Of a DNA stretch of 11,032 bases, positions 1,012 to 11,032 are shown one piece after another; position 1 is the stretch's first letter; each line of letters begins with the position of its first letter. Made by a program: the position numbers and the translations under genes. The stretch is taken from positions 1-11,032 of the forward strand of contig JAGWDQ010000036.1 of assembly GCA_018260615.1 (NCBI GenBank), given 5' to 3'. The notes beneath the pieces were generated by a model. The model saw only the letters and a list, made by a program, of their open reading frames with translations, was not told where the DNA came from and made no database searches. This DNA is from Candidatus Altarchaeum sp. GTDB lineage: Archaea > Altiarchaeota > Altiarchaeia > Altiarchaeales > Altiarchaeaceae.

Positions 1012-1054
1012 TTTCCATCTTTATTATCTTTTTTATCGTACAGGAAAGTTCGTT

Positions 1055-1348
1055 TTATTGTTCTCTCACACCAAGACACGGAGACACAAAGGGCAATGTT
1101 GCTCTGTGACTTTGTGTGAGTATTCTTCTGATTTTTTTATCAGTTCTAACCAAATTTATCGCTTTTTTCGGGCATTTTGATACACATGTCGTGCAACCAT
1201 AGCAATAACTTGTGTCCTGAACAAGACACACATTTTTATTCCCAACCTTTTCTATTTTAAATATCCTCTGACCTTTATGACATACCCCTACACATATTCC
1301 GCAACCATCACATTTTTCGGGGTCTATTGTTATTTGTACCATCGGCAT
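1055..1348 (-). CDS. 2x[4Fe-4S] ferredoxin-like protein with C-terminal extension
   Basis: Two CxxCxxCxxxC motifs: CDGCGICVGVC(H) and CYGCTTCVSKCP, followed by AI. Start at 1348 or 1342. Confidence 0.9.
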   Translation of the reverse strand: MPMVQITIDPEKCDGCGICVGVCHKGQRIFKIEKVGNKNVCLVQDTSYCYGCTTCVSKCPKKAINLVRTDKKIRRILTQSHRATLPFVSPCLGVREQ

Positions 1349-1745: not shown

Positions 1746-2120
1746 ATGTCAAATCCGCACAATACAAAAAATTGCCCGATAATGGGAATCAATAAATGTA
1801 TTTTTGAAGAAACAGGAAAATGCCCGATTACTGAAATTTCAAACATTCTCGCCAAAAGATGGGTGATGCAAATAATGAGGGAATTACTTGCCGGAAACAG
1901 AAGATTCAACGAACTTCAAAAGTCATTAAAAAACATTAGTCCGAGAGTGCTTTCGGAAAGATTGGATGAAATGGAAAAGTACGGGATAATCAAAAGAAAA
2001 ATTTATGCGGAAGTTCCGGTTAAAGTTGAGTATTCATTAACAGAAAAAGGATTGGAATTAAAGGACTCATTAAATGCCCTGACTAAATGGTGGATAAAAT
2101 GGGAATTAAGCAATATTTGA
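1746..2120 (+). CDS. HxlR-family winged-HTH transcriptional regulator (HypR/YodB/QsrR-like)
   Basis: CP...ILAKRWVMQIMREL...RRFNELQKSL.NISPRVLSERLDEME..GII.R..YAEVPVKVEYSLTEKG is the HxlR signature. Three N-terminal Cys (C10, C18, C26). Divergent from the redox genes. Confidence 0.93.
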   Translation: MSNPHNTKNCPIMGINKCIFEETGKCPITEISNILAKRWVMQIMRELLAGNRRFNELQKSLKNISPRVLSERLDEMEKYGIIKRKIYAEVPVKVEYSLTEKGLELKDSLNALTKWWIKWELSNI

Positions 2121-2248
2121 GAAATTTTCTTTTTTATAATTATATTGCTAGAAGTAAGCAGCGGGATTCTAAATTTTCAAGATAATTGTTTAGTGTTATT
2201 CGTTTTCATAGGTCTATTCTTTTATTCGGTTAGAGAATGGTATTTCAT

Positions 2249-2336
2249 ATAACGGATGGAGGATATACGACGTTCGCCGATAGGCGAATGTCCCGAAGGG
2301 CAAGGACGAAGTCCGCCGCGTATATCCTTTTGTTAT
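2249..2336. repeat. attC-like structured element E1 (88 bp)
   Basis: ATAAC-GGAT-GGAGGATATACG-[ACGTTCGCC GATA GGCGAATGT]-[CCC GAA GGG]-CAA-[GGAC GAA GTCC]-GCCG-CGTATATCCTTT-T-GTTAT. Confidence 0.9.
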
Positions 2337-2355
2337 GTGAAGTTGATGAAGGACA

Positions 2356-3936
2356 CTAAATGTCTAATTTGTTATATATTGGCAGCACCGGCGGCATCCA
2401 ATCATTTTCAATTTTCCTGAATTGATCTGTTATCTCAAAGATATGATGTAATGGTGTAACAACCACGCCCGTATCTTCATTTGGTTCCTCTTTAATCCAT
2501 GATTTAAGGTTGTTGAATGAGATATGATACGCATCCTCAAGTAATTCAAGAGCGACTTTTTTCATCTCAAATCCGGAATACAGGAGATACGCTACAACCA
2601 TTAGATCATTTGACTGCAGATTGCAGTATGGCTGGTATGGCGCCATTTTAAATATTGTTGGCTTTTGATGCGTTCTTTCAAATTTTTCAAACCTTTCTTC
2701 ACCCCACAATCCATGTAATTTTCTTAAAATTCTCATCACATCATCCGCCATTCCAAGTCGCGCATAACCAACCATAACATCGTACAATTTTATATTTCTC
2801 CAGCTTCTTTTAAACTGTGCTGATCGATAGGTTGTAAAATGATTTGCCAATTTTTCACCATCCTCAAGCAATTCCTTCCCGGAATCAATATTATTAAATC
2901 TTGCAAAAACAGGTGCAATGAAATTTCTGAATGGTTCTTCTACTATTCTACCCACTTTTTTCCCTTTTAGTTCTTCTTCCTTTGGTTTTGTTTTTTCGGC
3001 AATTAACATGGCAAATTCTAATGCTTTTTTGTCGTTTAATCTTGAATAAGCATAAATTAAACTTAAAATTTCTCCCTCATCGCGCGGAATTTCCAGCATT
3101 GGGCGATTCGCTGCAGGAGAATCTTTAAGGTCGGGATATACTTCACATAACCTGGTATGCATCAATTTATCAATCCTTTTTTCCTCTTTATCAAGTATCT
3201 GTTTTGATTCGGCATATCCATTGGAAATTGAGATATATTCAAATATTCTATGTTCTCCAGAGCATACCGGAGCATCTCCTTTCGTCAATCCAAATATAGA
3301 GGGATTTCGTTTATCCGGAAATAAATCAAATATTTTTGCATCTTTAAAAAATCTTGAGAGCCATAAATTTATTCCTTCATTTAGTTTTCCCGCGCTTGCC
3401 AATCGCCACCATATATCATCCCCATCTATCTCAAAACCAATTTGGACTATATCACAATCCTCATTAAAGTGTTCTGAACGCATACGCATCCGGCATGTAT
3501 CGCCGACAAATATAAATGAGATATCCCTTATTACATCCTCTAATCCAAGAGATGTAGCAATCAAAAACCAATCATTAAACAGACCAGATGGTGCATTAAA
3601 CACACCAAATGTTCTAATTTCTTCAATCTTATTTTTTATATCTTTTTCTATGAATGCCGTTGGAAATCTTTCAAATAATTCTTTAGCAATGGCAAGTTCT
3701 CTTGCACATACCAAATCCCGAAGTATCTCAAATTCTTTATAATAAATTGGTTGAACATCACGATATTTCCCTTTCTTTGAAAAGAAATTTGTATTTTTTA
3801 TATATTCATTCATTTGGTCTATCTCTCCTGCCCGTGCATATATTCTTAGAGCATCTTGAATTGCCATTTCCTTCCAATTTTTATGTTTAGAGCATTCACT
3901 CATTACTTCATTTAATCTATATTCCCATGTTACCAT
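2356..3936 (-). CDS. Hypothetical 526-aa cytoplasmic, largely alpha-helical protein
   Basis: Long ORF, charged and Leu/Ala-rich, no signal peptide or motif I recognise. Its stop codon directly abuts the cassette end arm (2332-2355). Confidence 0.8.
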   Translation of the reverse strand: MVTWEYRLNEVMSECSKHKNWKEMAIQDALRIYARAGEIDQMNEYIKNTNFFSKKGKYRDVQPIYYKEFEILRDLVCARELAIAKELFERFPTAFIEKDIKNKIEEIRTFGVFNAPSGLFNDWFLIATSLGLEDVIRDISFIFVGDTCRMRMRSEHFNEDCDIVQIGFEIDGDDIWWRLASAGKLNEGINLWLSRFFKDAKIFDLFPDKRNPSIFGLTKGDAPVCSGEHRIFEYISISNGYAESKQILDKEEKRIDKLMHTRLCEVYPDLKDSPAANRPMLEIPRDEGEILSLIYAYSRLNDKKALEFAMLIAEKTKPKEEELKGKKVGRIVEEPFRNFIAPVFARFNNIDSGKELLEDGEKLANHFTTYRSAQFKRSWRNIKLYDVMVGYARLGMADDVMRILRKLHGLWGEERFEKFERTHQKPTIFKMAPYQPYCNLQSNDLMVVAYLLYSGFEMKKVALELLEDAYHISFNNLKSWIKEEPNEDTGVVVTPLHHIFEITDQFRKIENDWMPPVLPIYNKLDI

Positions 3937-3958
3937 TTTTTAATGTTTCCTTTTGTTT

Positions 3959-4771
3959 TTAATTTATAAGCATATCTTCTTGTGTTGATCCCGGGCTTAA
4001 AAATCTTATATCGGGATTTTGTTTTAATTTTTCCGTGATTTTTGTTTCTAATTTTTGGACAAGCGTTTCATTTTCCTCATTAACCCCACAGATTTGAACA
4101 TATATTGCATTATGGGACGAAAGGATTATAGGAATAAATGGATTGCCTACTCTCTCATTACCAACCAATAAATATAGTTTATTATCGGGCAAATGAAATG
4201 TTATTACTCTAAAAAGTTGGCTTCTGTATCTACCATTATAAAAATCTTTAATACTGGTGGGAAATATTTTGCCCAACAACGGAAAAACTAAATAATAATA
4301 CCAGTATTTATATCTTCTACGAAAATTACCTAAAGTTGCAGAGTAATCTTGTTTTTTATATTTAATTGGTATTTCGTTTAAGCATTTTTCAACAATACCC
4401 AATGCAAAATTCAATTCTATGTTATAAAATTCCAATAGATGATAAAGGTCTTTACCTATTATATTCTTATGATTATGCCAATTATTAAATAATGAATTAC
4501 TCTTATCTCTCGCCCAGACAGACCGAACTGGAAGTATAACGATTGTATAATAAAATAATGCCATAACAAAAACCCAGGATATGAGGAAAAATAATGTATT
4601 AACATATATATTACTAAAGTCAAAACTATAAACATTAGTGACTACATGAAGCATACTCCCGGTGACTATTAATGACATGAGTGTGATAGGGATCCACATC
4701 AGAATAAACAATATAAATATTATCCAGAATGCTACTTTATTTATTTGAATCGTCCTATAAACCCAATTCAT
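3959..4771 (-). CDS. Hypothetical membrane protein (two N-terminal TM segments, soluble C-terminal domain)
   Basis: Hydrophobic stretches VAFWIIFILFILMWIPITLMSLIVTG and LFFLISWVFVMALFYYTIVILPV; 22-34 bp spacing from its neighbours. Confidence 0.8.
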   Translation of the reverse strand: MNWVYRTIQINKVAFWIIFILFILMWIPITLMSLIVTGSMLHVVTNVYSFDFSNIYVNTLFFLISWVFVMALFYYTIVILPVRSVWARDKSNSLFNNWHNHKNIIGKDLYHLLEFYNIELNFALGIVEKCLNEIPIKYKKQDYSATLGNFRRRYKYWYYYLVFPLLGKIFPTSIKDFYNGRYRSQLFRVITFHLPDNKLYLLVGNERVGNPFIPIILSSHNAIYVQICGVNEENETLVQKLETKITEKLKQNPDIRFLSPGSTQEDMLIN

Positions 4772-4805
4772 TTTGCTCTTTATTTTTTTGATTTTACGGT
4801 TTTAA

Positions 4806-7800
4806 TCAAATTTCAGATATATGTGCACTAACACCATTCCCACTTCCCGCCGGAGCGTCAGACTCTATCTTTCTTACATCTGTTGCCGGTGCATTTCCCG
4901 TTCTTGGTTCAAAATAGTTCCCGTCAACGGTTCTGCCTGCGGTTGCCATTCCCTTATACTCATACACACCAGTATCGGGATTCTCTATATATTTTCTCGT
5001 GCTTGTGTGTGCTACCTGTGTATTTGGGTAATCTTCAAGATATGTTCTTCCGGAAGGCGTAGTATATGTCCTCCCACTTAATCTCCCTTTTGTTACGATT
5101 TTTAACATAACTCCATACCCCGTTTCGTTTTCAATATATTTAATTTCCGTTATTCTTATTCCATTCTCATCCAATACATCTGTCCTGCCCAGTATAGTAT
5201 CACTTCTTGCCAGATGCTCATTATAGATCTTATTCACAATGTTATTGTGCTGTGTCTCTGCTATGTTGTTCAATTCCGAATACTCCGTATGTGTAAGGTT
5301 TAGTATTTTGCTAAATATTTTCCCGGGTGTTGTTTCTATCCCAAGTGCAGAATCTAAATACTCTTGAATTTTTGAAGTTATTTCCTCCTGATCAGAGCCA
5401 TTAAAAATACTTTCAACATTTGTGGTGTGCCACAACTGAGTATTGATATGTGTATATCCCGCTTTGTATCCAAGTGCCGCTCCGGATGACCCAACTAAAG
5501 ACAATGTTTTTATCAGGGTCCCATCGTCATTCCGACACGCAACAAATTCCAGACCTCCTGAAATCGCTCCTGCAGGTGTGGGTGTACTGCCTTGTGCAAA
5601 CCCTCCAGTACATGTACCTCCATACTCTGAATTGCCTTCAATACCCCAAACTAATGTGGCTTCTCCCTGTATCGATATGTCCGAAAAAAGATCAATTAAT
5701 GAACTTACTCCCCCGGTCGCCTCTGCAGGACCAGCAAGTTGAGCTATATCTGTTAATCCTACACTAAGTATGAGTCCCGCGCCCAATTCCGCCGATTCTG
5801 TTGTTATTATACTCACATCATGTGTTTTAAGATTGATAAGTAATCCTCCCTGTACATCAACACCTGCTGATACGACACAATTAAAACTTGCTGTACCACC
5901 AGTCGCAGGGATTATAACTATCGCATCCGCACCCGTCAGGTCATGAATACTGTCCAATACATCAATTACATACTCTGACTCTGTTTTATTTGAATAAACA
6001 ACAATATTAACTGATTTTAAATTAACAGAAGAATTATCAATATATTTTGGAACATCAAAGTCCAGATAATATGTTTCGTTTTGTGAAATATTTACTTGTC
6101 TTGTATCATTACAAATTATGCTACCATTTTCAGCATAAGCAGTTAATATTATCGTATGATTATCACTATAATTGGCAAGAATTGAATATGTGAATCTTGT
6201 TTGCGAATCATTTTCTTCAATATCTTCCAATCTCACGATTTTTAATGGATCCGCATCTTTTGAAATTTTAGAAAATGTCGCTTTCCGTTTGAGGTAATGG
6301 GTTGAATTATGAGGGAGTATAATCTCTTTTCCGACAGTATAATTGCCGTTGAGATCTAAATTTAAATCAGAATTAATTCCGGAATTATTTATAACAGTGA
6401 CAACTATCTCTTTTGGAATGCTGTTCGTTGTTTCGGAACTTGATTTCAGGATAACGGTTGCTGTGTAATTGTTGTTTGTTATACTAAAATTATCAAAAAT
6501 AATTCTATTGGAATCTATATTTATAGTTCCGTTAATGCGGATAATTGTTTCATTTGAAACCAAAAGCAATTGTGCATTTTTTATTTCAGATAAATCGCTC
6601 TCAGCAGATATACTGAATGGAAATTCATCAAGATAAATTACTTCATGGGAATCATTATTTAAAATTTGTGTTAAATTGCCGCAAGAGTAATTCAACCAGT
6701 TCACTTTATAAGGGGAGTAGGTAAAGCTGGCAGTATTGTTTATATTAATTTTTCTTGTATTTGTGGATATGTTTCCTGTACTGTAAATCCCTGATGCGGT
6801 GTACCAATAACCCTCCGAACTATATGGCAGGTTATAAAGAACAAATTGCGAAACTCCATTTATATCTGTTGTACTGTTTAAAACAATTGTTAAATTTGAA
6901 TTCCACACATTTAATTGCACAGAAATGTTCTCTTCCGGGTATCCAAGATTAGTAGATTTGATGCCAATGACCGAAACAGATATTTGAGTATTATTTATTA
7001 AATAGGAGGGGATTGGTTTTTCCATCAAAGGGTTGGTTTCTGTTTTATTGTCATCGTCAAATTGACCTAAATATTCTATTTTTCTATAATATAATGAACA
7101 GGTATTAACACAATCAGAAACTGCAGATATATCATTATAATTATTGGTTGTGGTGCATGTGTTATTATCTCCTGAATTTGAACCAATATTGGAAATGTCA
7201 TAATAATCACCTCCTGATTGATTGTTATTGCAGAATATATTAAAGTTTATTGTATTGCTTGCAGCAGTACTTGTCGTATAAAAACCATGACGATTATTGT
7301 TGTTTGCAGTATTATTGATTAAATTATTATATTCTGAGTAAGAAGATAAATAAATCCCATAATAATTTGAATTTGCCGTATTACCGGTTATGTTATTATT
7401 ATCCGAATACCGCAGATAAATTCCGCGATAAAAATCAGTAACTACACAATTCCTGATTACATTATTGTCTTTACTACTTAAATAAATTCCTTTATCAGTT
7501 CCAGAACCGTCACCGCCAATTGTATTTCCCTGGCAGTCAAAGATTTTATTGTTGAAATTTCCAGGGTTGTCAATGCAAGTTCCTGTGTGGTTTATTATGC
7601 TGGTATTTAGTTTGACTGTATATGCATTATTGTTAATGTTCAGAGCATCATAGCAATCCGAACAGCTGTCACACGCGCATACTTCCCCCATGGTCCCTGT
7701 GCAGTTATTGGCACTTGCGAGTGTGCTCACTCCAAGGATAAATACAAAAGTTAGTATTCCATACATTACAGTTCTCCATAAATTTTCATTCAATGGTCCA

Positions 7801-7856
7801 AAACCCTTATCCGCTCTCTCATGAACTTCAGCGGAACAACTATTTTTGTTTTGCAT
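4806..7856 (-). CDS. Large secreted/surface protein: N-terminal NosD/right-handed beta-helix (PbH1) repeats, beta-rich middle, Gly/Ala-rich segment and uncharacterised C-terminal domain
   Basis: Signal/anchor segment (YGILTFVFILGVSTLASA). Motif CDSCSDC...TCI...IFDCQGNTI.G, then repeated GIYL....NN.I..N.. units. Many NxS/T sequons. Confidence 0.85.
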   Translation of the reverse strand: MQNKNSCSAEVHERADKGFGPLNENLWRTVMYGILTFVFILGVSTLASANNCTGTMGEVCACDSCSDCYDALNINNNAYTVKLNTSIINHTGTCIDNPGNFNNKIFDCQGNTIGGDGSGTDKGIYLSSKDNNVIRNCVVTDFYRGIYLRYSDNNNITGNTANSNYYGIYLSSYSEYNNLINNTANNNNRHGFYTTSTAASNTINFNIFCNNNQSGGDYYDISNIGSNSGDNNTCTTTNNYNDISAVSDCVNTCSLYYRKIEYLGQFDDDNKTETNPLMEKPIPSYLINNTQISVSVIGIKSTNLGYPEENISVQLNVWNSNLTIVLNSTTDINGVSQFVLYNLPYSSEGYWYTASGIYSTGNISTNTRKININNTASFTYSPYKVNWLNYSCGNLTQILNNDSHEVIYLDEFPFSISAESDLSEIKNAQLLLVSNETIIRINGTINIDSNRIIFDNFSITNNNYTATVILKSSSETTNSIPKEIVVTVINNSGINSDLNLDLNGNYTVGKEIILPHNSTHYLKRKATFSKISKDADPLKIVRLEDIEENDSQTRFTYSILANYSDNHTIILTAYAENGSIICNDTRQVNISQNETYYLDFDVPKYIDNSSVNLKSVNIVVYSNKTESEYVIDVLDSIHDLTGADAIVIIPATGGTASFNCVVSAGVDVQGGLLINLKTHDVSIITTESAELGAGLILSVGLTDIAQLAGPAEATGGVSSLIDLFSDISIQGEATLVWGIEGNSEYGGTCTGGFAQGSTPTPAGAISGGLEFVACRNDDGTLIKTLSLVGSSGAALGYKAGYTHINTQLWHTTNVESIFNGSDQEEITSKIQEYLDSALGIETTPGKIFSKILNLTHTEYSELNNIAETQHNNIVNKIYNEHLARSDTILGRTDVLDENGIRITEIKYIENETGYGVMLKIVTKGRLSGRTYTTPSGRTYLEDYPNTQVAHTSTRKYIENPDTGVYEYKGMATAGRTVDGNYFEPRTGNAPATDVRKIESDAPAGSGNGVSAHISEI

Positions 7857-7943
7857 TTTTTGTTTAATTTTGTTTGATTTTATTTATTTTGATTTAAAGT
7901 TAATAAATGTTTAAATTCTAAATTTGTCCGTAGTCAATTTCAT

Positions 7944-8031
7944 ATAACGTATGCGATTAAGCGAAGTTTTGCGTCAGCAAAATATGGGTGAAGTTTCCTG
8001 CAAGGAAACGTAACCGCTTAATCGCTGTTAT
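7944..8031. repeat. attC-like structured element E2 (88 bp, divergent sequence)
   Basis: ATAAC-GTAT-GCGATTAAGCG-[AAGTTTTGC GTCA GCAAAATAT]-GGGTGAA-[GTTTCCT GCA AGGAAAC]-GTAAC-CGCTTAATCGC-T-GTTAT. The TTAAGC/GCTTAA stem resembles a canonical attC L box. Confidence 0.9.
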
Positions 8032-8146
8032 GCTCTCTGACCGAAGGGAAGACGAAATTTTAGTGCAACGATGCCGAAGGTAAAAATTTCGAGTTCAAAA
8101 ATCGTGCGTGGGGTGGAAGTTTTAGAAATTAGTGAGGACTGATTAA

Positions 8147-8485
8147 CTAATGAAAAATAGTCAGATACAGAAAAATAAGTCCTAATATTAAGAATATAAT
8201 ACCCATACCTCGATATATTTTAGGAATTACTTTTCCTGGTTCCCATTTAGAACCTAAAATTTTCATCCACCAAACCTGAAATTTTATTAGCCAATCAGGT
8301 TTTATAGATAACAATAATCCTATAAGAGTAAATGGAACTGCTAGGAACCAGCCGTATTGTGCCCAAAATATATCGCAAGGAATTTCTTGGTCATTTACAT
8401 AACATTTTGCCATTACTGGACTAATTATCATCAACAATGTTAAAGTTGAAATTCCAAAAAGTATAAATTTATTTTTCTGTATCAT
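8147..8485 (-). CDS. Small membrane protein with signal peptide (DUF6199-like C-terminal pattern)
   Basis: N-terminal hydrophobic leader ending ...SPVMA-KC, a Cys pair (CYVNDQEIPC), a TM helix ending KPDW, W...W...EP...R.MG and a final TM helix. The DUF assignment is from pattern recall only. Confidence 0.7.
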   Translation of the reverse strand: MIQKNKFILFGISTLTLLMIISPVMAKCYVNDQEIPCDIFWAQYGWFLAVPFTLIGLLLSIKPDWLIKFQVWWMKILGSKWEPGKVIPKIYRGMGIIFLILGLIFLYLTIFH

Positions 8486-8495
8486 TCTGTATCAT
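8476..8495 (-). repeat. 10-bp tandem duplication of the start region (ATGATACAGA x2)
   Basis: The + strand reads TCTGTATCAT at both 8476-8485 and 8486-8495. Confidence 0.9.
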
Positions 8496-8519
8496 ATTGA
8501 AACTATAATTATTCTTATA

Positions 8520-8527
8520 TTTATAAA
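8520..8527 (-). promoter_or_regulatory. Putative archaeal TATA box of the 112-aa gene cassette
   Basis: Minus strand TTTATAAA preceded by A-rich ACAAAAACAAATG (BRE-like), about 25 nt upstream of the ATG at 8495. The AT-rich background weakens this call. Confidence 0.45.
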
Positions 8528-8581
8528 CATTTGTTTTTGTCAGCCCGAACGTATCTTAGTAGCACGATTTTTGAATTGAGC

Positions 8582-8669
8582 ATAACGGAATAAGGGTATC
8601 CGAAGTTGCCCGATATGGCAATTTCACGGAGTGCAAGGGCGATAGCCCGTAGCGGATACCCTTTGTTAT
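8582..8669. repeat. attC-like structured element E3 (88 bp)
   Basis: ATAAC-GGAAT-AAGGGTATCCG-[AAGTTGCC CGATAT GGCAATTT]-[CAC GGA GTG]-CAA-[GGGC GATA GCCC]-GTAG-CGGATACCCTT-T-GTTAT. Confidence 0.92.
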
Positions 8670-8708
8670 CGGATGTAATGCGGAGGCATCTTATTCAATC
8701 AGAATGTT

Positions 8709-9263
8709 TTAATATGGAAATGTGATTATTAGGATTGCTATTAGTGCAACCACTATGATGATCACCCCTACAAGTGATATAAGAAGGACACCGATTGCCT
8801 TGCCTTGTGTAAATTCATGTGCCACCCTGATAGCCCGGTATGTAAACACTAAACTTGCAATTTGGTATATTAAGATACCCAAAAAAGGTATTATCGCAAA
8901 TATTCCTGGCGCATACGGAAGAGCCATCGCCCTTAAAAAACTAGTATAATCTGCTTTTCCACCAGCGAGTTTGCAAAATATATGGAAATATCCAGTAGTA
9001 ATTGGCCAAGCTATAAGTGCAATAATAGGGAATATGACAATATCCAACAATCCAAACCCTAATGAACCAAAACGAATACTTTTTTCTTCAATTCCCGGAA
9101 CAAGAAAAGATTCGAGCAATCCACCAATTGAAATAAAAATAGATGCAATTATAATGATAATGGCACCAGATACTAATGCATCTTTATCATCTCGTGCTTC
9201 TGCAAATACTTCCCTATCTGAACTCAGAACTCTTTTCATCCTGTTAAATACTATGTTCATCAT
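8709..9263 (-). CDS. Yip1-domain (YIP1 family) multi-pass membrane protein
   Basis: VL..D.EVF.E N-terminus, TM helices, and the conserved ...KLAGGKADY...LRAMAL...P...IIPFLG...AIRVAHEF..GKA pattern of prokaryotic Yip1 proteins. Confidence 0.88.
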   Translation of the reverse strand: MMNIVFNRMKRVLSSDREVFAEARDDKDALVSGAIIIIIASIFISIGGLLESFLVPGIEEKSIRFGSLGFGLLDIVIFPIIALIAWPITTGYFHIFCKLAGGKADYTSFLRAMALPYAPGIFAIIPFLGILIYQIASLVFTYRAIRVAHEFTQGKAIGVLLISLVGVIIIVVALIAILIITFPY

Positions 9264-9362
9264 TTTTCTTTATTTTGGATTTTTATTTTTTAATTAATTA
9301 TTAAACATGGATTTAAATATAAATTTGTATGGTTTTGTAATTCTGCCGAAGCATTATTTCCG

Positions 9363-9450
9363 ATAACGGATTAAGGGTATCCGAAGTTGCCCGATAGGGC
9401 AATTTCACGGAGTGCAAGGGCGATAGCCCGCCGCGGATACCCTTTGTTAT
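9363..9450. repeat. attC-like structured element E4 (88 bp, near-identical to E3)
   Basis: ATAAC-GGATT-AAGGGTATCCG-[AAGTTGCCC GATA GGGCAATTT]-[CAC GGA GTG]-CAA-[GGGC GATA GCCC]-GCCG-CGGATACCCTT-T-GTTAT. Confidence 0.92.
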
Positions 9451-9511
9451 CGGATGTAATGCGAAGGCAGTTTATTCAGTTGGACTGTCGTTAGTTAAAC
9501 ACCTATAAATT

Positions 9512-10942
9512 TTATGATGCTTTTACTCTTTTGACATTTGAGATACACTCATCTTTATCCTTCTTTTCTGATATTTTCTCGCAGAGAGAGCCATCCAGTT
9601 TTGCTATAGCAACCTCTTTAACACACCAATTTTTCCCTATTGAATTTGATGTTTTGTCACACAAGAAGACATCTTGTTTTTTTTCAGCAAGTCGGCTAAT
9701 ACATATGTCTTTATACCCCATATCCATGAATCCATACTTATATCCATACATATCTTTAAGTTCAGATACAGATGTATCCCCTATATCCCCACACAGAGAG
9801 ATATTCTGTTTTGCCACAGCAATCTTATAAATACACCACCTTTCATACCATGAATTTGATTTTTCACACAGAGAGATATCCTCTCTTGTCGCTGCAACTC
9901 TTAGAATACACCCTCCTCTTCCACCTAAAAGCGTTGATGCGTATGTCTTAGAGTGGGTCGCTGTTGCTATACTTGACTCATAGTTTTTGGTATAAATATA
10001 GCCATCCATCGATGTATATCTCTCAGAGTATCCTCTTATTATGCTCCATAATGTTTCCCCTAATGATATTCTCTCACAAAGTGAGATGTCTCCTTTCGCC
10101 GATGCAACCCACCCCATACAATTTTCTCTCGCAGAGGCATCGTATGTCTTAGATATTACAGAATTCTCTGATATCTTTTCACAGAAAGAAACATCTTTTT
10201 TATCCATTGCAAATAAGTAAATACACTCATTTTTATCTTCTGTTTTATTCATCGAATCACAATAAGAGACGCCCTCTATTTTTATCTTTTTATATGCCTC
10301 TTTTTTTCCTTGGTAACATTTATCATAACAATCTTTTGAATCGCAATATAAATCGCAATATGTCTCAACAACACCTTTACATTTTTCACCTGAACATACA
10401 CCTTCATTACACTTATTATTCTTACAACATAGCTCACTAATTCCTCCACATTTTTCACATTTCCCATTAGAGCATGCACCTTCACCACAGATATTATTCA
10501 TACAGCATAATTCACTAATTCCTCCACAACTTAAACATTTACCTTCACTACAAGCCAAGTTAGAAGATGAACATTTGTTGCCTTCACAGCACAACTCACC
10601 AGTCCTTCCACATTTTTCACATTTTCCATCCGAACACGCCCCCACATCACAGAGATTGTTATTACAGCACAACTCACCAGTCCTTCCACATTTTTCACAT
10701 TTTCCATCCGAACACGCCCCCACATCACAGAGATTGTTATTACAGCACAACTCACCAATTCCTCCACAACTTAAACATTTATTTTCACTACAAGTCAAAT
10801 TAGAATATGAACAATTGTTACTCTCACAACAATTTTGATTTAAATTCCCACATCCTCCAGTACACCCACTGATTATTATAAATCCAACAATGGCCAGCCC
10901 TACAATTCCATAAGTAAATAAATTTTTATTTGTATTTTTCAT
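9512..10942 (-). CDS. Cys-rich lipoprotein with six disulfide-type repeats and C-terminal A..K.D.S.CEKI-type repeats
   Basis: Probable start ATG 10942 (ORF track starts at TTG 10960). Basic N-terminus, hydrophobic core and lipobox-like ISG-C27. Repeats CGxxxE/QxCCxxxxCxxxxCxxxxC, then repeats such as AMDKKDVSFCEKI, ASAKGDISLCERI, AIAKLDGSLCEKI. Confidence 0.88.
   Translation of the reverse strand: MKNTNKNLFTYGIVGLAIVGFIIISGCTGGCGNLNQNCCESNNCSYSNLTCSENKCLSCGGIGELCCNNNLCDVGACSDGKCEKCGRTGELCCNNNLCDVGACSDGKCEKCGRTGELCCEGNKCSSSNLACSEGKCLSCGGISELCCMNNICGEGACSNGKCEKCGGISELCCKNNKCNEGVCSGEKCKGVVETYCDLYCDSKDCYDKCYQGKKEAYKKIKIEGVSYCDSMNKTEDKNECIYLFAMDKKDVSFCEKISENSVISKTYDASARENCMGWVASAKGDISLCERISLGETLWSIIRGYSERYTSMDGYIYTKNYESSIATATHSKTYASTLLGGRGGCILRVAATREDISLCEKSNSWYERWCIYKIAVAKQNISLCGDIGDTSVSELKDMYGYKYGFMDMGYKDICISRLAEKKQDVFLCDKTSNSIGKNWCVKEVAIAKLDGSLCEKISEKKDKDECISNVKRVKAS
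10586..10757. repeat. Exact 78-bp intragenic tandem repeat (2.2 copies)
   Basis: Identical units start at 10586 and 10664, with a partial third at 10742. They encode GELCCNNNLCDVGACSDGKCEKCGRT. Confidence 0.95.
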
Positions 10943-11003
10943 TTTTTCATGAATTATCAATTACTATATTTAAATGTAAAAAGTTATATTTAGCTGATTT
11001 TAC

Positions 11004-11032
11004 AATTCTGCCGAAGCATTATTTCCGATAAC
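11004..11032. repeat. Cassette end arm plus AAC core of a fifth element (E5), cut by the window end
   Basis: AATTCTGCCGAAGCATTATTTCCGATAAC is identical to 9339-9367, which leads into E4. Confidence 0.9.

Follow-up and report, generated by a model that had tools for sequence, protein, structure and literature searches.

Both the definition of integrons and the search for them rely on the IntI-specific domain of their integrase and on a canonical model of their attC sites; by these IntI/attC criteria, Firmicutes, Actinobacteria, and most Archaea appear to have few or none (PMC9024848). Published archaeal integrons were detected with HattCI and IntegronFinder, encode IntIs with the extra domain, and carry attI downstream of intI (Ghaly et al., 2022, PMC9668308). 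Among the simple tyrosine recombinases, an "integron-like" subgroup has been distinguished in which the insertion is only partly conserved (Smyshlyaev et al., 2021, PMC8138268); no description of the sites, arrays, or N-terminal domain of its insertion-less members was found in that paper. The window considered here is the entire 11,032-nt contig C36 of a metagenome-assembled genome (MAG) of Candidatus Altarchaeum sp. (G000; 2.2 Mb in 148 contigs, 33% G+C, 87% complete). It holds a run of co-oriented gene cassettes, each closed by an attC-like hairpin (H), and is quite likely one of several integron-like arrays in this organism, served by an Xer/IntI-related tyrosine recombinase acting with H and with a second, attI-like site (T). 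A cassette array with non-canonical hairpins had been proposed from the letters of this DNA (the original prediction); that observation is confirmed and its interpretation partly supported. The host was also correctly called a probable archaeon, as the MAG has ribosomal protein S28e, and the bacterial L20 was not detected in it.

The H sites E1 (2249..2336), E2 (7944..8031), E3 (8582..8669), and E4 (9363..9450), all labeled on the plus strand, each measure exactly 88 nt from ATAAC through GTTAT. The units that adjoin them are 5607, 550, 693, and 1577 nt long and are co-oriented as predicted; the long open reading frames (ORFs) between the sites all lie on the minus strand, so that each H comes after the 3′ end of one gene or of a group of genes. 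A covariance model of H built from 12 copies in this MAG recovers E1–E4 with E-values of 1e-12 to 6e-22, at 93.6 bits for E1, 64.1 for E2 (the most divergent copy, with two sub-hairpins), 93.9 for E3, and 101.6 for E4. On the plus strand, all four fold better than shuffled controls (z of −3.8 to −6.3), and the coordinates, fold scores, and model together bear out the four 88-bp palindromic elements that had been proposed. E1 is the final site of the array, where it closes a three-gene cassette, and a site in G056:C98 matches it with 96.7% identity over 120 nt, G056 being the genome of a member of another family.

Each H folds into an outer ATAAC/GTTAT helix, a bulge of 5–6 nt opposite 1–3 nt, an inner stem, and a branched tip. 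The inner stem is a perfect 10–11 bp helix without an extrahelical base, and the tip consists of two to three sub-hairpins whose loops are often of the C-GAA-G, C-GGA-G, or C-GATA-G type, which we take to be stable DNA mini-hairpin motifs. The predicted departures from attC geometry, namely an asymmetric bulge in place of the 5/6 spacer, no extrahelical base, and a multi-part tip, are therefore all seen in the folds. A stem running about 20 bp past the R box had also been claimed; it exists at E4 and is missing from the other sites, and the flank test described below makes it a by-product of the cassette ends. The boxes themselves are of the attC AAC/GTT type, with ATAAC/GTTAT retained in 47–48 of 49 aligned copies, and the corresponding 7-mers of E1–E4 are each one base off RYYYAAC and GTTRRRY.

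The H model finds 24 copies in the MAG and, across the class, H turns up in 26 of 61 genomes. In an alignment of 49 distinct copies from numerous genomes, 92.6% of the cells are paired; compensatory changes on both sides are seen at 22 of 30 pairs, and the pairs of the box are invariant. The covariation score of this alignment is 0.50, compared with 0.04–0.07 when the partners are slid. Two of the pairs are G·T on the antisense (plus) strand in 45 and 44 of the 49 copies, and these same positions would be A·C mismatches on the gene-sense strand. Furthermore, the antisense strand folds 1.4–3.4 kcal/mol better than the sense strand in all four window copies. These results argue that the structure of H is under selection, on the bottom strand, and from them we infer that the bottom (antisense) strand is the one that folds. 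The conserved G·T wobbles and the better antisense fold argue against an mRNA terminator or a sense-RNA element, and fit a single-stranded bottom-strand DNA substrate, as in integrons.

At the end of the window (11008–11032), the original prediction had placed the flank of a fifth hairpin, with a recombinase probably encoded beyond 11032. In the assembly graph, C36 shares its last 55 nt, by overlap, with the start of C120 and with the end of C5, and on both contigs the terminal ATAAC is followed by a T element of about 135 nt, with no hairpin. T comprises three direct units about 38 nt apart, each a palindrome of a 7–9 nt half-site of the ATATACG…CGTATAT type, and the last unit is followed by 5–6 nt and then by the GTTAT at which the cassette starts. 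The half-site is the conserved part of the H inner stem, and of the final 23 nt of T, 17 agree with the 3′ arm of H, which has the same half-site, 5-nt spacing, and GTTAT. Folded H therefore offers, as a duplex, the two boxes that T offers as ordinary double-stranded DNA. Past T lie a Thi4 gene on C5 and an ECR1_N exosome-type gene on C120, and no integrase is found on C36, C120, or C5. As the graph leads through T into housekeeping genes, the window array is not headed by a recombinase; the fifth hairpin does not hold, and the adjacent recombinase is not supported.

Nine T copies occur in the MAG, and arrays of the order T, gene, H recur about nine times. Seven of the nine T copies have at least one H, with the opposite strand label, within about 0.5–2.6 kb; those with H behind them are on C38, C5 and C120 (both of which join the window), C142 (two), C68, C70, and C81, while no H was found behind the copy on C90. 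The copy on C38 stands directly behind the only tyrosine recombinase gene of the MAG. In relatives, an nhmmer profile of T gave three weak matches only, and it was more informative to read the sequence past the stop of each integrase gene: T-like palindromes with GTT (mostly GTTA) behind them were read by eye directly after the stop at 11 loci, and a strict pattern finds them at 13 of 53 loci, the background rate being 0.006 per 300 nt. Thus, at C38 and at 11 other loci, an attI-like element lies directly beside and downstream of the integrase gene.

The sole tyrosine recombinase of the MAG (C79:92-1120, locus L018) is 342 amino acids (aa) long and heads a different array from that of the window, contrary to the notion that the window array has its own recombinase alongside. 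C38 begins with the last five codons of this gene, followed by its T copy and two cassettes with H sites, and C79 diverges 35 nt past the stop codon into an IS630-family element (C49; DDE_3 and HTH_23). Against the integron-integrase model TIGR02249, the protein scores 207 bits in two pieces, the cut-off being 265, and positions 180–235 of the model, which hold the IntI extra domain (55 in the model), correspond to 13 residues. The IntI-specific insertion at the patch III region is likewise absent from all 15 aligned family members. In both sequence and predicted fold, the recombinase is about equally close to IntI4 (2a3v) and to XerA (4a8e, 5hxy), with 29–34% identity, and its matches to the solved XerA chains begin at its residues 64 and 79. 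The N-terminal 72 residues are predicted with confidence to form a beta-beta-alpha-beta-beta-alpha-beta domain (predicted local distance difference test score, pLDDT, 88.5), whose best fold matches are the HARP substrate-recognition domain of SMARCAL1 (probability 0.98) and the damage-recognition domain of XPB. Pfam HARP matches 8 of 14 family members, with a best E-value of 2.3e-5. HARP and XPB damage-recognition domains bind forked or distorted DNA, and the predicted fold suggests that the HARP-like domain may read the bulged or branched hairpin.

The association of this recombinase with T and H recurs well outside the MAG. In Altiarchaeales, co-oriented H sites lie 1–5 kb downstream of its homologs in G056 (C49, C11, C42, C289), G030:C3, and G003:C2 (locus L065; G003 is the same-genus genome Candidatus Altarchaeum sp. 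CG2_30), and in G002:C135 a T-like match lies at the contig end just behind the integrase gene. G056 has six integrase matches. The integrase copies in G002:C135, G030:C3, and G056:C11, C42, and C289 are often broken, with stops, split frames, or C-terminal fragments still ahead of H arrays, and those in G056:C49 and G003:C2 are intact and keep the first catalytic arginine. Full-length homologs that include the N-terminal domain occur at 40–67% identity in many Bacteria and Archaea, and identity of up to 67% between the two domains speaks for horizontal transfer of the recombinase. When 80 integrase-linked loci from public genomes were searched with the H model, 12 proved to bear H: those of Atribacteria (7 sites), Desulfitobacterium sp. 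Sab5 (6), Thermodesulfobacterium, two Spirochaetes, Bacillota, Ignavibacteriaceae, two Nitrospirae, Micrarchaeota, Hydrothermarchaeales, and Altarchaeum. Of the 28 H matches at these loci, 27 carry a strand label opposite to that of the integrase, and all except one lie downstream of it. The recombinase family reads towards its arrays (intI, T, and cassettes, co-oriented) and not away from them. To judge from these loci, the module of integrase, T, and H-bounded cassettes is conserved across two domains of life. A search for a recombinase beside the arrays has accordingly yielded one, of an insertion-less, HARP-bearing type that is linked to H arrays across many genomes.

The ends of the cassettes carry a further trace of recombination. 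If cassettes were formerly circles joined at the box, each flank should be complementary to the opposite end of its own cassette, and not to the neighbor it now has. This was examined in the 12 nt outside the box in seven arrays from four genomes, with other contigs as background. Flanks form 5.94 Watson-Crick pairs of 12 with their own far end (contiguous run 2.38), as opposed to 4.52 with the partner in situ (run 1.13), which is no different from the background of 4.23 (run 0.81). The probability that the background equals or exceeds the own-end value is below 1e-4, and at 9 of the 11 informative junctions the own end is the better partner. Within the window, the ends of cassette 2 are 79% complementary over 24 nt, and those of cassette 3 pair for 9 bp through the box, while in situ E3 and E2 show no extension. 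The long stem of E4 arises because two adjacent cassettes have the same 53-nt leader, one copy of which (10980..11032, plus strand) ends with the ATAAC half-box at the T junction and the other of which (9315–9367) is 83% identical. This own-end pairing is best read as the trace left by circular cassettes that recombined at the ATAAC/GTTAT box.

Taken as a recombination system, the array would work as follows. A cassette would consist of one to three co-oriented genes followed by an 88-nt H, which, when its bottom strand is folded, would show two duplex boxes: the invariant, R-like ATAAC/GTTAT and an inner, L-like box of the CGTATAT or CGGATAC type, with a 5-nt bulge between them and a branched tip capping the hairpin. 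The head of the array would be the double-stranded, attI-like T just outside the window, with its three direct L-type palindromic units, 5–6 nt, and GTTAT. The recombinase, an Xer/IntI-related enzyme without the IntI insertion and with a HARP-like N-terminus, whose gene lies directly upstream of T in relatives, would exchange strands at the GTTAT box between a folded H and T, or between two H sites, with cassettes leaving as circles and entering behind T. Speculatively, its HARP-like domain may recognize the bulged or branched DNA and so replace the IntI insertion, which contacts extrahelical bases. A distinct cassette system with folded recombination sites, as originally proposed, agrees with a geometry and a recombinase that both depart from those of IntI integrons.

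Several observations weigh against this reading. The recombinase passes the archaeal XerA model NF040815 (237.9 bits against a cut-off of 220) and, since this is an NCBIfam equivalog cut-off, could be annotated as a chromosome-dimer resolvase. Its likeness to HARP falls under the curated Pfam cut-off, and the Foldseek E-values are weak (0.03). At residue 197, the position of the first catalytic arginine, it has a glycine (GGA codon), reading GLGVSE where 14 of 14 aligned homologs read GLRVSE, and the recombinase of this MAG is thus probably inactive. The closed relative G029 has nine H sites, and the integrase query matches it only partially (residues 73–340 and 64–334); one match was read and starts without the HARP region, such that G029 apparently lacks a HARP-bearing integrase. 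The four-site array of G029 has no recognizable T, part of the neighboring sequence being masked, and its 278-aa Xer-type gene, with an H 290 nt upstream and no T behind, is probably the housekeeping XerA. A cassette of 5.6 kb with three genes is unusual for integrons. In the VchIntIA-VCR structure, canonical attC is the mirror image of H as to which arm carries the extra bases; those of H are on the arm of the presumed cleavage box, and the analogy may therefore fail in detail. In the Logan contigs of two groundwater runs, neither circles nor excision junctions nor alternative orders were found, these contigs breaking at the near-identical E3 and E4. One candidate excision, an 8.7x contig in X2 that joins 2352 to 7928, skips the 5.6-kb cassette and keeps both hairpins; the joint lies off the boxes, with a 22-nt side of 90% likeness, probably stems from another array with the same leader, and was not counted.

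It is improbable that the window is an ordinary integron remnant, that is, a cluster of canonical attC sites lacking an integrase (CALIN) whose normal IntI was missed in a MAG that is 87% complete. The AAC/GTT boxes, the layout of gene then hairpin, and the circular-cassette footprint are all integron features, the MAG is incomplete, and published archaeal integrons also have attI downstream of intI (PMC9668308). However, no protein of the MAG reaches the integron-integrase cut-off, at least 12 independent loci have an insertion-less, HARP-bearing recombinase beside such arrays, and H has neither the 5/6 spacer nor the extrahelical bases of attC. In the portion of the archaeal integron survey's supplementary tables considered here, moreover, no Altiarchaeota are listed (PMC9668308). 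Somewhat less probable still is that the recombinase is the housekeeping XerA and T its dif-like site, so that the link to arrays is either incidental or like that of Xer-exploiting elements (integrative mobile elements exploiting Xer, IMEX, and dif modules); this lies at the bottom of the alternatives. The XerA_Arch equivalog cut-off is passed by the only tyrosine recombinase found in the MAG, and the units of T are palindromes of Xer-like half-sites, all of which would suit such a role. Yet dif is a single 28-bp site, unlike T with its two to three units and a GTTA junction in common with H. In place of one housekeeping recombinase of about 280 aa and one dif, there is a 342-aa protein with a HARP-like extension, followed by T and cassettes, and its N-terminal domain of 70 residues is absent from the solved XerA chains that it matches. 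The family is also multi-copy and often pseudogenized (six matches in G056; broken copies in G002, G030, and G056:C11), and it reaches 67% identity between Archaea and Bacteria.

Hardly more probable than the XerA explanation is that H represents selfish repeats resembling repetitive extragenic palindromes (REP) or miniature inverted-repeat transposable elements (MITE), or terminator hairpins at the DNA level behind genes, with no recombination of cassettes. Several H copies in the MAG do occur singly, and the genome is rich in small repeats, such as one of about 110 nt at window 1029–1140 that is found in at least 27 places; in a published survey, Ca. Altiarchaeum hamiconexum has the highest MITE density among archaea (PMC11602168). 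No signature of terminal inverted repeats with target duplication is seen at H, however, and in every array mapped H follows genes that read towards it and carries the opposite strand label. Its orientation relative to the integrase is conserved across two domains, with 27 of 28 matches co-oriented with that gene, and what the flanks pair with is the far end of their cassette, not the partner in situ. The original prediction had named elements unrelated to genes, a fixed gene order, and the lack of a recombinase as signs of such repeats, whereas H is tied to genes, cassette content varies between relatives, and a recombinase is associated. A terminator is further opposed by the better fold of the antisense strand and its conserved G·T wobbles. 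Moreover, a search of the entire window against Rfam at a permissive threshold gave no match at the H sites, which speaks against both terminators and REP; the lone match was a chance one to a microRNA model inside a gene.

The integron-like reading of the window is thus retained. Because the array has no recombinase of its own and the only copy in the MAG looks catalytically dead, it is probably static now or moved in trans; it is best regarded as belonging to an apparently undescribed variant of integrons that occurs in both domains, and as probably inactive at present. Literature searches on Xer-type or HARP-bearing integron integrases and on Altiarchaeum integrons found no description of the arrays, the T site, or the HARP-like domain. 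The wider proposal, to which we give a little more credence than doubt, is that of a second integron class across both domains, with a Xer-like, HARP-type integrase, a bulged and branched attC, and a downstream palindromic attI, which is missed by IntI-based searches and occurs in Altiarchaea, DPANN, Firmicutes, Atribacteria, and others.

The cassettes of the window, all on the minus strand, are numbered from T. Cassette 1 (9451..11027), the first behind T, encodes a 482-aa protein with internal tandem repeats (9512–10960), which is probably a surface repeat protein. No ortholog of it was found among relatives, where matches are limited to the repeat domain. Its tandem repeats of 78 nt (26 aa) occupy window 10376–10831, and related modules are found in large proteins of C121, C100, and C75 as well as in many relatives. 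Cassette 2 (8670..9362) encodes a 184-aa Yip1-family membrane protein (8709–9263; PF04893, E-value 2.6e-13) that was not found in three same-genus genomes and has at most 46% identity to matches elsewhere. Cassette 3 (8032..8581) holds a single ORF of 112 aa (8147–8485) that belongs to no family and has no match in 60 genomes of the class. Cassette 4 (2337..7943), of 5.6 kb, holds three ORFs: one of 1016 aa with a right-handed beta-helix (4806–7856), one of 270 aa (3959–4771), and one of 526 aa with no Pfam family (2356–3936). Its 5′ leader (about 7755–7950) has copies of 79–82% identity in G056, in front of cassettes on C98 and after the integrase on C49. No orthologs of the cassette genes close enough for a direct comparison of cassette order were found in 60 relatives. 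On this distribution, the cassette genes are accessory.

Beyond the array, the contig holds ORFs at 6–320, 416–685, 1055–1634, and 1746–2120, which include those for a rubrerythrin-like protein, a MazE/AbrB-type antitoxin-like protein, a 2x[4Fe-4S] ferredoxin, an ORF of 91 aa whose similarity is confined to the C-terminal end of the anaerobic ribonucleotide reductase NrdD, and an HxlR regulator, the latter on the opposite strand. The repeat of about 110 nt at 1029–1140 is imperfectly palindromic and unrelated to H; its copies, 75–99% identical, are spread over many MAG contigs, it reaches very high depth in public runs, and it lies at the start of the ferredoxin-like ORF 1055–1348 (minus strand). 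At 873–953, in a stretch without a listed ORF of at least 60 aa, two 27-nt direct repeats stand 54 nt apart and appear to encode CxxC-type zinc-ribbon motifs on the minus strand. Window 2080–2289, comprising the 3′ end of the HxlR gene and the first 40 nt of E1, is duplicated with 88.6% identity at G000:C17:279-488, beside a weak H match. The first 50 nt of C36 are identical to the starts of C69, C87, C90, and C114, and C36 and C69 both continue into C143 with a 55-nt overlap, which indicates that several arrays end at a common repeat boundary.

Should the proposed system be real, the extra domain of IntI would be no universal requirement for recombining folded sites, and the HARP-like domain together with the bulge of H would offer a natural comparison, in the recognition of strand and structure, with the I2 helix and extrahelical bases. 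An integrase up to 67% identical between this archaeon and bacteria such as Nitrospirae and Atribacteria would point to a route of gene exchange across domains. If the second class holds, integron-type gene capture would extend to clades thought to be nearly free of integrons. For Altiarchaeum, the arrays would be identified as the source of much of the strain-specific surface and membrane gene content.

Compared with known systems, the arrays share most with IntI integrons. In both, the cassettes are co-oriented and terminate in imperfectly palindromic sites bearing AAC/GTT boxes, a primary site beside a tyrosine recombinase has its insertion junction at GTT, the two ends of a cassette are the two halves of one site, folding appears to favor the bottom strand, and the cargo is accessory and rich in ORFans. 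The downstream position of the primary site is that of attI in archaeal integrons (Ghaly et al., 2022, PMC9668308). They differ in that the recombinase lacks the IntI insertion and has a HARP-like N-terminal domain, and in that H has a 5-nt bulge on the box-bearing arm, whereas attC has a 5/6 spacer and extrahelical bases on the other arm. In addition, the tip of H is a conserved branched structure, T consists of two to three palindromic units, and there are many T-headed arrays per genome, most without an integrase. The window resembles a CALIN (PMC4889954, PMC9024848) in being a series of attC-like sites on a contig without an integrase. However, it keeps an attI-like head, H may not fit the canonical attC model, and E1 and E2, 5.6 kb apart, exceed the usual 4-kb rule, although E2, E3, and E4 fall within the spacing. 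With XerA and XerC/D and their dif sites, the system has in common its palindromic binding sites and catalytic and core-binding domains that are as similar to XerA as to IntI4. Unlike these, its recombinase has an extra N-terminal domain, is multi-copy and horizontally spread, and is followed by T and hairpin-bounded cassettes.

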